DNA from: Alphaproteobacteria bacterium
GTDB lineage: Bacteria > Pseudomonadota > Alphaproteobacteria > UBA828
Assembly (NCBI GenBank): GCA_965237415.1
Contig: CBDEFM010000002.1
Location: forward strand, 544,001-608,000
Direction: 5' to 3'
Length of the DNA stretch: 64,000 nucleotides
The notes under the pieces were generated by a model. The model was given only the letters and a program-made list of their open reading frames with translations. It searched no databases and had not been told where the DNA came from. The number at the start of each line of letters is the position of its first letter. The stretch's first letter is position 1. Of this stretch, positions 33,864 to 35,129 are shown piece after piece. A program made the position numbers and the translations under genes.

Positions 33864-34334
33864 ATGAACGACGAAACCTACATGCGGCGGGCGATCGCGC
33901 TCTGCGAAGTGAAGATGGCGGCCGGCGAAGGCGGCTACTGCGCGACGATCATCGTGCGCGACGGCGAGATGATCGGCGAGGGCTGGAACAATGTTGCCGA
34001 GAACCACGACGCCACCGGCCATTGCGAAATCAACGCCATCCGCGACGCCGGCAAGCGTACGGGAAACTGGGACCTCTCCGGCTCGGTGCTCTACACGACG
34101 TGGGAGCCCTGCGTCATGTGCGCCGCGGCGATCTGGTGGGCGCGGATCGATCGGGTGTTCTACGGCAATCTCCTCTCCCAAGCAGCCGAACTCGGTATCG
34201 ACATCAGCGAGCTGGAGACCGAGGTCGCGACTTCGAGCGAGCAGCGCAGCCGCCCCTACCGGCGACTGCTGGGCGATGAAACCTTCGCCATGTTCAAGGC
34301 ATGGTGGGACAGCGGGGACCGCACCACGATCTAA
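33864..34334 (+). CDS. Zn-dependent nucleobase/nucleoside deaminase (CDA fold, guanine-deaminase-like)
   Basis: DATGHCEINAIR and EPCVMC motifs. Confidence 0.85.
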   Translation: MNDETYMRRAIALCEVKMAAGEGGYCATIIVRDGEMIGEGWNNVAENHDATGHCEINAIRDAGKRTGNWDLSGSVLYTTWEPCVMCAAAIWWARIDRVFYGNLLSQAAELGIDISELETEVATSSEQRSRPYRRLLGDETFAMFKAWWDSGDRTTI

Positions 34335-34340
34335 TGGCGC

Positions 34341-34369
34341 TTGCACCGCTGAAGCGAGCGCGCCATATA
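34341..34369 (+). promoter_or_regulatory. Sigma70-type promoter for the small extended-SD transcript
   Basis: TTGCAC-N17-CATATA, close to the alphaproteobacterial consensus. Confidence 0.55.
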
Positions 34370-34403
34370 CGAAATGTCGTCAACAACGAAAGGAGGTGAT
34401 CCA

Positions 34404-34478
34404 ATGTGTGACAGTCGTAAACCGCGATCGGCGGTCACCGTGATCTGGGTCTCCCCCTGCGATGGGGCCCACGGCTGA
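34404..34478 (+). CDS. 24-aa small ORF preceded by a 16-nt extended Shine-Dalgarno (rreB/rreR-like small mRNA)
   Basis: GAAAGGAGGTGATCCA (34388-34403) abuts the ATG. Encodes MCDSRKPRSAVTVIWVSPCDGAHG*. Confidence 0.65.
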   Translation: MCDSRKPRSAVTVIWVSPCDGAHG

Positions 34479-34514
34479 CGGTGACGACGCGATCTGCGGA
34501 TCGCGGATTGACAG

Positions 34515-34545
34515 GGAAGGGCCGCCCGATGCGGGCGGCCCTTCC
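34515..34545 (+). terminator. Perfect 13-bp hairpin closing the small transcript
   Basis: GGAAGGGCCGCCC-GATGC-GGGCGGCCCTTCC. Confidence 0.7.
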
Positions 34546-34589
34546 AACGTTACGGGTGCGCGCGCGGGGCGCTAGCCCTGGCGGCTCGC

Positions 34590-35129
34590 ATGATCGAGGG
34601 TGTGCCGGAGGTCGCCGCGACGGGCGTGATTCCCGCAGGATTCTGGCGGCGCGTGGCGGCGTGGGTCATCGACGGCATCCTCGTGATGGTGAGCTTCTTC
34701 ATCGTTGGGATTTACCTCTGGCCCGATCTGGTGGAGACCACGACGCTCGTCTCCCAGGTCGATGGTGCGCGGTTGGAAACCGTGCGCTACGCACCGACCA
34801 TGCTAGGCACTGCGGTTCTCGGCATCGCCTTCTGGGCCTACGTGGCGCTCCAGGAATGCGGGCCGGCCCAGGCGACCCTCGGCAAGCGGATGCTGCGGCT
34901 GCAGGTCACGGGGCTTGACGGCGCGCGCGCCTCGCTACTCACGGCAAGCTTCCGCAGCTGGCCGCGCTGGCTGCCGGGGATTCTCGGGGTCATCGGCATT
35001 CTCGATGCCATCGGAGGCCTTGCCGCCCTTGCCGCTTGTATCGCTGTCGCCTTCACCCGACGCAAACAGGGGCTGCACGACATGATGGCACGGTGCCTGG
35101 TGGTGCGCCGGCCGCCGCCTGTCCTATGA
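34590..35129 (+). CDS. RDD family membrane protein
   Basis: AGFWRRVAAWVID, QATLGKR, RKQGLHD. Confidence 0.88.
   Translation: MIEGVPEVAATGVIPAGFWRRVAAWVIDGILVMVSFFIVGIYLWPDLVETTTLVSQVDGARLETVRYAPTMLGTAVLGIAFWAYVALQECGPAQATLGKRMLRLQVTGLDGARASLLTASFRSWPRWLPGILGVIGILDAIGGLAALAACIAVAFTRRKQGLHDMMARCLVVRRPPPVL

Follow-up and report, generated by a model that had tools for sequence, protein, structure and literature searches.

A 64,000-nt stretch of an uncultured alphaproteobacterial genome (GenBank assembly GCA_965237415.1, contig CBDEFM010000002.1, positions 544,001–608,000; hereafter the window) carries, from position 34376 to about position 34548 of its forward strand, an element that probably specifies an RNA of about 170 nt belonging to the rre/CC2171 family and working by docking on ribosomes. 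The element combines an extended Shine-Dalgarno (SD) sequence of 16 nt, a short open reading frame (sORF) of 24 codons whose start codon (ATG 34404) directly adjoins the SD sequence, and a terminal hairpin. The assignment is built on homology to a curated RNA family, on exact complementarity to the 3' tail of the genome's own 16S rRNA, and on conservation within the genus, where the reading frame changes in the manner of an RNA.

Family membership and 16S rRNA complementarity

The Caulobacter RNA CC2171, published as a small RNA (sRNA) since 2008, is described in Rfam by model RF01867, which matches the element from its first to its last position (model positions 1–159 of 159, 62.5 bits, E value 1.1e-12). 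The curated gathering score of RF01867 is 75 bits, and because the score of the element lies under this value Rfam-based annotation does not call it; at gathering level, no Rfam match was obtained in the whole 64,000-nt window. The RF01867 consensus carries the same extended SD sequence, reading GAAAGGAGGUGAUCCAGUG and beginning cAAcaAucGAAAGGAGGUGAUCCAGUG. The alignments of the model to six comparison loci likewise cover positions 1–159, with scores of 120 bits for Caulobacter, 90 for Methylobacterium, 69 for a metagenome-assembled genome (MAG) of the Acetobacteraceae, 65.5 for Ancylobacter, and, on rre-type loci, 42 for a Bradyrhizobium locus with an RreB-type peptide and 37 for a Rhodobacterales locus with an RreR-type peptide.

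The rre family was published in 2016. Its member rreB, an mRNA of 165 nt, is complementary to the 16S 3' end over 17 nt, which are laid out as 3 nt, AGGAGG, 7 nt and the G of the GTG start codon (Hahn et al. 2016, PMC5711450). The window element shows the same layout, with 3 nt, AGGAGG and 7 nt followed by the start codon. Because it combines this rreB-type layout with a full-length RF01867 match, the element is, judged by homology, a member of an already described alphaproteobacterial RNA family, and no new family needs to be named for it. A reading made from the DNA letters alone (hereafter the sequence-only reading) had likened the element to the rreB/rreR small mRNAs, and in this respect the layout and the RF01867 homology bear it out. 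Its suggestion of an analogous or new family did not hold, given a homologue within a described family at an E value of 1e-12, nor did its placement of rreR in Rhizobiaceae, as rreR is described in Rhodobacterales (Hahn et al. 2016).

The same comparisons indicate that CC2171 of Rfam and the rre mRNAs are one homologous family. The available part of Hahn et al. (2016) mentions neither Rfam nor a Caulobacter sRNA, and a preprint that reports detection of CC2171 by Northern blot in Methylorubrum extorquens (bioRxiv 10.1101/2022.01.24.477521) does not, in its accessible part, mention Shine-Dalgarno, 16S or rreB. In the literature on rreB, rreR, CC2171 and RF01867, we found no paper joining both names.

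The genome consists of two contigs (4.75 Mb, 66.7% GC) with one assembled 16S gene. This gene ends ...GCGGCTGGATCACCTCCTTTCTAAGG, and its complementarity to GAAAGGAGGTGATCCA in the window is exactly 16 nt, broken on both sides, so that the perfect 16-nt anti-16S SD sequence of the sequence-only reading is borne out against the genome's own 16S 3' end. We counted every k-mer of a 26-nt anti-16S template on both strands of the 4.75-Mb genome and found that, apart from the rRNA gene itself, nowhere but at positions 34388–34403 does a match reach 15 nt or more. The count of matches of at least 14 nt, which the sequence-only reading had proposed, added one 14-mer only (AGGAGGTGATCCAG at C2:152657); this candidate is part of a long coding frame of DnaE-like type (EEVIQY) and was rejected as a chance match. 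The EEVIQY coding motif recurs in a family relative (L144).

The predicted duplex with the 16S tail amounts to -29.7 kcal/mol; a form starting with GTG would give -32.4, and AGGAGG by itself -9.2. In the window RNA, the prediction leaves most bases of the SD sequence single-stranded, and opening the SD sequence would cost 3.7 kcal/mol. To our knowledge, the rre/CC2171 family has the most extreme natural SD sequence known.

Comparison with the described members shows how far the likeness extends. In Bradyrhizobium japonicum USDA 110 and other Bradyrhizobiaceae, rreB is a stand-alone RNA with its own promoter (Hahn et al. 2016); the element would likewise give an RNA of about 165–175 nt, putatively from its own -35- and -10-like boxes. 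Both have a leader, GAAAGGAGGUGAUCCA(G), that is complementary to the 16S 3' tail over its whole length, a tiny sORF whose start codon abuts or overlaps the complementarity, hairpins and a terminal stem-loop. They differ in that the element has 24 codons instead of 14, a dissimilar peptide (MCDS... as opposed to MSxxKRCHLAGIAR), ATG after 16 nt instead of GTG with 17 nt, another genomic context and a hairpin without a U tract. With CC2171 of Caulobacter crescentus, which Rfam files as a non-coding sRNA, the element shares the extended SD sequence, the order of hairpins and the terminal stem, whereas the model has GUG and a long-range helix that is degenerate in the genus and mispaired in the window copy. 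The rreR mRNA of the Rhodobacter/Roseobacter clade has in common with it the extended SD sequence, the abutting start codon and the small size of frame and transcript (Hahn et al. 2016), but rreR starts with GTG, encodes an unrelated peptide (MSRVILERGVGT...) in 18 codons and has a U-rich tail of canonical form. An Azospirillum gene labeled 'rre' also has a 16-nt complementarity followed by ATG (Hahn et al. 2016); in three Azospirillum loci (L056, L076, and L136), the ATG opens a frame of 59–60 codons with a signal-peptide-like N-terminus (MSHGASPVVAALFGLA...), and the label may cover an ordinary gene for a small secreted protein. A model of the genus copies matched one of these loci (L076) in part, over positions 9–109.

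Conservation, RNA structure and evolution of the frame

A BLASTN search with a 301-nt query recovered the element in 18 of 20 same-genus genomes, with one copy per genome. The arrangement of SD sequence, frame and hairpins, whose conservation in relatives the sequence-only reading had named as decisive, is kept in all aligned copies. These 18 copies (alignment A1) are 176–177 nt long and have a mean column identity of 94%; the sole indel is one inserted T in the SD sequence of copy G013, and one copy has a G-for-A change with which a G-U pair is still possible. The genes on either side show less conservation in the same genomes, with identities of 57–80% for the RDD-family protein (most congeners) and about 85% for the deaminase. 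The start codon is GTG in 16 of the 18 copies and ATG in two, those of the window genome and its closest relative. The first G of a GTG start lengthens the 16S match to 17 nt, and this longer complementarity is found in 15 of the 16 GTG copies, the exception being G013; with the ATG of the window species the pairing is only 16 nt. Matches of 13 nt in three genomes (G015, G016, and G021) were set aside as 16S gene or coding-like sequence; in G015 and G016, the 13-nt core is present only in the 16S gene.

RNAalifold applied to the 18 genus copies predicts a GGA/UCC hairpin inside the SD sequence, three internal hairpins and the terminal stem, 44 pairs in all. The predicted fold exceeds those of shuffled sequences in stability (z = -4.1), and codons 2–4 are predicted to be paired in the window RNA. 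Covariation within the genus is thin: 3 of the 44 pairs changed on both sides, among them pairs 77-96 and 82-95 (A1) of the branched hairpin.

A long-range helix is seen family-wide, in which UCAUUGUC pairs with GACAAUGG directly 5' of the terminal hairpin; it is the closing helix of the RF01867 model, and its 5' strand comprises codons 2–5 of the sORF. In a structure-blind MAFFT alignment of 43 members (A3), 93% of cells outside the genus are paired in this register as opposed to 31–60% in slid registers, two pairs have changed on both sides, and the variants UCAUUGCC/GGCAAUGG and UCAUAGUU/GACUAUGG occur. Against permutation (73 copies including the genus) the gain is small, with a mean of 7.10 versus 6.74 and helices of at least 7 bp in 62% versus 53%, because the 5' strand hardly varies; the helix is thus supported by its register and the few compensatory variants. 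In the genus, this closing helix has 5–6 bp with G-U in some copies, and cmscan flagged mispairs in the window copy.

The sequence-only reading had proposed instead a stem enclosing SD sequence and frame, in which GTCGTCA (34376–34382) is complementary to TGACGAC (34482–34488). Within the genus this stem (GUCGUCA/UGACGAC) stands, with 90.5% of cells paired and one compensatory exchange of U-A to G-C in two copies. It gains no support family-wide, where the mean best helix was 6.88 versus 6.75 after permutation of partners in 135 loci; in this alignment-free test, which matched the 15 nt 5' of the SD sequence with the region 3' of the sORF and has low power, 7 bp were reached in 53% of loci versus 53%. 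In this genus, the enclosing stem takes the place of the degenerate closing helix.

Two further observations concern the primary sequence. In columns 16–46 of A3, whose members come from several orders, an uninterrupted run of about 27 nt (GAAAGGAGGUGAUCCAGUGUCUCAUUG) shows little or no variation; this block reaches well past the 17-nt 16S complement, and it includes a GUGUCUC that the Rfam structure leaves unpaired. The terminal stem, too, keeps its primary sequence from order to order (AAUGGAAGGGC...GCCCUUCUUUCU), with an SD-like 5' arm and a 3' arm that, taken together with the tail, is similar to the 16S tail CCUCCUUUCU.

The sORF evolves like RNA and not like a peptide gene. Over codons 2–24 of the 18 genus copies, variable columns number 10, 14 and 10 at codon positions 1, 2 and 3, respectively. 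In the 15 genomes with a full deaminase gene the corresponding numbers are 8/12/9 of 23 codons for the sORF versus 31/33/103 of 156 for the deaminase, and an excess at the third position was absent in every sORF class compared. Among 52 sequences from outside the genus, TCT stands at codon 2 in all 52, CAT at codon 3 in 49 and TGT at codon 4 in 40; these fixed codons end in U in high-GC genomes, and the Ser codon has no synonymous variation. The frame evolves as RNA because codons 2–5 sit in the conserved long-range helix.

The hexamers, the abutting ATG, the 24-residue sORF and the 13-bp hairpin of the sequence-only reading are all present (table 1). The peptide has two Cys and a conserved Trp. 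The -35- and -10-like boxes make up a putative promoter, and the position of the latter places the predicted transcript start near 34376. An in-frame ATG at 34374 opens a 34-codon frame and lies at or before this likely start. A scan for Escherichia coli-type promoters found no sites, which is uninformative for an alphaproteobacterial promoter. Of the "perfect 13-bp terminator" that had been claimed, the 13-bp hairpin is confirmed and the call as terminator is not, given the absence of a U tract; a terminator scan found no sites, consistent with this absence. The motif (U)CGUCAAC(A) recurs 5' of the SD sequence in distant family members.

Table 1. Features of the element and its two flanking genes, in window positions
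Feature	Position	Strand	Basis
-35-like hexamer TTGCAC	34341-34346	+	Sequence; CTTGC kept in 18/18 genus copies
-10-like hexamer CATATA, 17 nt 3' of the -35-like box	34364-34369	+	GCGCCATATAC invariant in 18/18 genus copies
Short 5' leader GUCGUCAACAAC	34376-34387	+	Position relative to the -10-like box
Extended SD sequence GAAAGGAGGTGATCCA	34388-34403	+	Perfectly complementary over 16 nt to the 3' tail of the 16S rRNA of this genome
sORF of 24 codons, ATG 34404 to TGA 34476-34478	34404-34478	+	Translation MCDSRKPRSAVTVIWVSPCDGAHG
Predicted hairpin within the sORF, CCGCG/CGCGG type (A1 columns 49-63)	34421-34435	+	RNAalifold consensus, 18 genus copies
Predicted branched hairpin, 3' half of the sORF and stop codon (A1 columns 65-110)	34437-34482	+	RNAalifold
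Predicted hairpin CGCGAUC-UGCG-GAUCGCG	34488-34505	+	RNAalifold; 7 pairs kept in 17-18/18 copies
Terminal GC-rich hairpin, perfect 13 bp (34515-34527 with 34533-34545), then AACGUU	34515-34545	+	Sequence, RNAalifold; 18/18 copies
Full-length match to RF01867 (CC2171 sRNA), below cut-off	34381-34542	+	62.5 bits, E 1.1e-12
Upstream gene for a cytidine/deoxycytidylate-type deaminase, outside the RNA	33864-34334	+	Pfam PF00383, E 2e-23
Downstream gene for an RDD-family membrane protein	34590-35129	+	Pfam PF06271, E 9e-20

Probable ribosome docking and alternative explanations

The rreB mRNA is found mainly in the ribosome fraction, where it co-sediments with 30S; its association with 30S is strong, its translation is weak and its stability depends on the start codon (Hahn et al. 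2016). Carried over by homology, these properties suggest how the window RNA would work. The short single-stranded leader would present 16 nt (17 nt in most congeners) to the whole free 16S 3' tail, and by this pairing the RNA would dock very tightly on 30S subunits. With the start codon directly against the long duplex and the next codons paired, initiation complexes would form while translation of the 24 codons would be weak, and it would be the engagement of the ribosome, and not the peptide, that governs the fate and turnover of the RNA. Going by the results with rreB fusions, the ATG of the window species should raise translation (Hahn et al. 2016).

Fourteen RNA entries on record contain part of the stretch, and contigs from four runs in three studies were compared with it; such contigs give neither ends nor strand. 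Runs sharing only a small fraction of words with the stretch were left aside and carry no information on habitat. A metatranscriptome labeled as sponge metagenome contains a 181-nt contig over 34347–34521 with one difference and a depth of 82.8, and a contig of the deaminase gene in the same data has a depth of 3.4. A second study yielded a 189-nt contig over 34283–34471, and a third yielded contigs of 712 and 924 nt, at a depth of about 50, that run through both the deaminase gene and the element. At 34519–34521, three contigs belonging to two of the studies break off, one of which goes on as a loose end unlike the window. The element is thus present in RNA libraries, and the contigs hint at an abundant short species.

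Several points weigh against a separate, ribosome-docking member of the family. The RF01867 score of 62.5 bits is below 75, as are the scores of all 17 congener matches. A separate transcript is unproven because contigs span the deaminase gene together with the element and give no ends; one RNA contig begins at 34347, upstream of the predicted start, and a U tract is absent 3' of the terminal hairpin in this element and throughout the genus. The complete single-contig genomes of two congeners (G015 and G016) lack a copy in all searches, which makes the element dispensable. All 18 copies retain a frame of 24 codons, and an RNA structure that overlaps the whole sORF could mask selection at the level of the peptide. 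Lastly, 30S binding and weak translation are properties carried over from Bradyrhizobium to the window organism.

The genes around the element bear on a cis-acting role that could exist alongside docking. An RDD gene follows 3' of the element in 19 of 19 genus loci (tblastn), even where the upstream deaminase gene is fragmentary or missing (L008, L014, and L018), and none was found near the element in the other 118 loci. In the genus loci (L001–L019), RDD starts about 18–45 nt past the terminal hairpin, and the genus lacks the U-rich tail that follows this hairpin in most members outside it. A role as RDD leader is conceivable because RDD lies so close behind a hairpin without a U-rich tail: in this genus, the RNA might be read through the U-less hairpin, with docking setting the expression of RDD. 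Although these regularities fit such a role, no RNA contig from the four runs bridges the terminal hairpin (three of the runs have no contig cover downstream of 34552, a gap that does not amount to absence), the depth in one run is about 3 downstream versus about 48 upstream, which as contig data is weak evidence, and a fixed gene order in one genus can reflect plain inheritance. We regard an additional role as RDD leader as rather unlikely.

We consider it unlikely, too, that the 24-residue peptide is the functional product and the long SD sequence merely tunes its synthesis. The open frame of constant length in the genus would fit a micropeptide gene, as would the tight lengths elsewhere (among the matches listed, 21–27 codons in frames of the MSHC type, 14 in RreB and 18 in RreR), the weak translation of rreB fusions and the ATG of the window species, a start codon that raised translation in the rreB work (Hahn et al. 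2016). Set against this are the codon patterns, which lack a third-position excess of the kind seen in the neighboring deaminase gene and include a Ser codon without synonymous change and U-ending codons despite high GC; moreover, a conserved helix has the His-Cys codons as its 5' strand, the different classes have peptides without relationship to one another, and RreB and RreR lacked structure when made synthetically (Hahn et al. 2016). The micropeptide function that the sequence-only reading had offered as one option gains no support from a frame that evolves in this way.

Its other option, a ribosome-sequestering RNA, fares no better. Sequestration of 30S subunits or 16S tails in bulk, lowering global translation, would agree with the very strong predicted duplex, with the occurrence of rreB in the ribosome fraction and with the high depth of the element contig relative to its neighbors in one metatranscriptome; yet overproduction of ribosome-binding rreB left growth unchanged and ribosomes far outnumber the RNA, both of which argue against bulk sequestration for rreB (Hahn et al. 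2016), and there is one copy per genome, with none in two complete congeners. We regard such a sponge as very improbable.

An accidental match, or a piece of an rRNA gene in antisense orientation, for which nothing speaks beyond the 16-nt identity itself, can practically be dismissed, since the match ends at exactly 16 nt with flanks that do not align to 16S (which excludes the antisense fragment that the sequence-only reading had allowed for), only about 1e-3 copies of the 16-mer are expected from composition by simple arithmetic, and the 176-nt unit has been kept in its entirety by 18 of 20 congeners and is homologous to a curated RNA family.

Distribution and meaning of the family

A 19-nt pattern consisting of the SD sequence and RTG matched at least 120 species records, nearly all of them Alphaproteobacteria. 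Among the matches listed, 72 frames are of an 'MSHC...W' type with 21–27 codons, which includes this genus, Methylobacterium, Bosea, Ancylobacter, Caulobacteraceae, and Acetobacteraceae; 21 are of the RreR type (18 codons), 13 of the RreB type (14 codons) and 17 of an ATG-start 'MSSE' type, with 13 other frames. An alignment of the 111 matches from the search with the genus model (A2; 548 columns, antisense terminator matches included) was too ragged and was not used. In a class-wide sample of 151 genomes (the window genome, G000, and 150 others; one per genus and nearly one per family), RF01867 was found in 22 at an E value of 1e-3 or less, G000 included, and only five of these pass the cut-off. 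As most members fall below the Rfam cut-off, annotation misses them.

Where most of the gene could be aligned, the 16S of the window lineage is 84–87% identical to those of Pelagibacterium, Ancylobacter, Roseiarcus, Falsiroseomonas (partial), Bradyrhizobium, and Lichenicola; judging from these identities, the lineage is deep-branching within the Alphaproteobacteria. The closest elements among the matches listed are 92% (L047) and 78% (L026) identical. The window copy thereby adds a deep-branching uncultured alphaproteobacterial lineage to the rre/CC2171 family.

Loci of the same design were also observed in Burkholderiales, where GAAAGGAGGTGATCCAGTG is followed by a frame of 22–26 codons (M[RS].[DH]QG...GS.R; L044 [=L155] 1631–1649, L051 4514–4532, L154, and L156), with a long-range pairing CAAGGCA...UGCCUU and a canonical U-tailed terminator. 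The genus model matches two of these loci (L044 with 28 bits and L051 with 23 bits). The 19-mer is present in 5 of the 201 genomes of a Burkholderiales sample, and in two of these five it precedes frames of 78–80 codons. In the available part of Hahn et al. (2016), rre is reported for alphaproteobacteria only. Outside the Proteobacteria, the 19-mer was seen sporadically, in Streptomyces (L078), Phycisphaerales (L042/L126), Bdellovibrionota (L065), and Methylomirabilis (L108), where it precedes frames of 12–192 codons; these may be chance matches or ordinary genes with a long SD sequence.

As a tentative proposal, possible but by no means probable, the rre/CC2171 sORF might, instead of being a peptide gene, serve as a decoy for initiation within a structured RNA that docks on 30S subunits: an invariant block (extended SD sequence, start codon, UCUCAUUGUC; about 27 nt) and the long-range helix that it forms would hold the 30S subunit in standby or stalled initiation, so that the RNA would read out free-ribosome capacity. 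If this were true, the literatures on an sRNA (CC2171) and on small mRNAs (rreB/rreR) would describe one RNA, and the design would extend into Burkholderiales. The window lineage would then have rewired it, with ATG, a new closing stem between 5' leader and post-stop sequence, no U tract and linkage to RDD, and the element in this lineage may act as a ribosome-sensing leader. The points that can guide experiments are one homologous family, a frame that evolves like RNA, and members that annotation misses.

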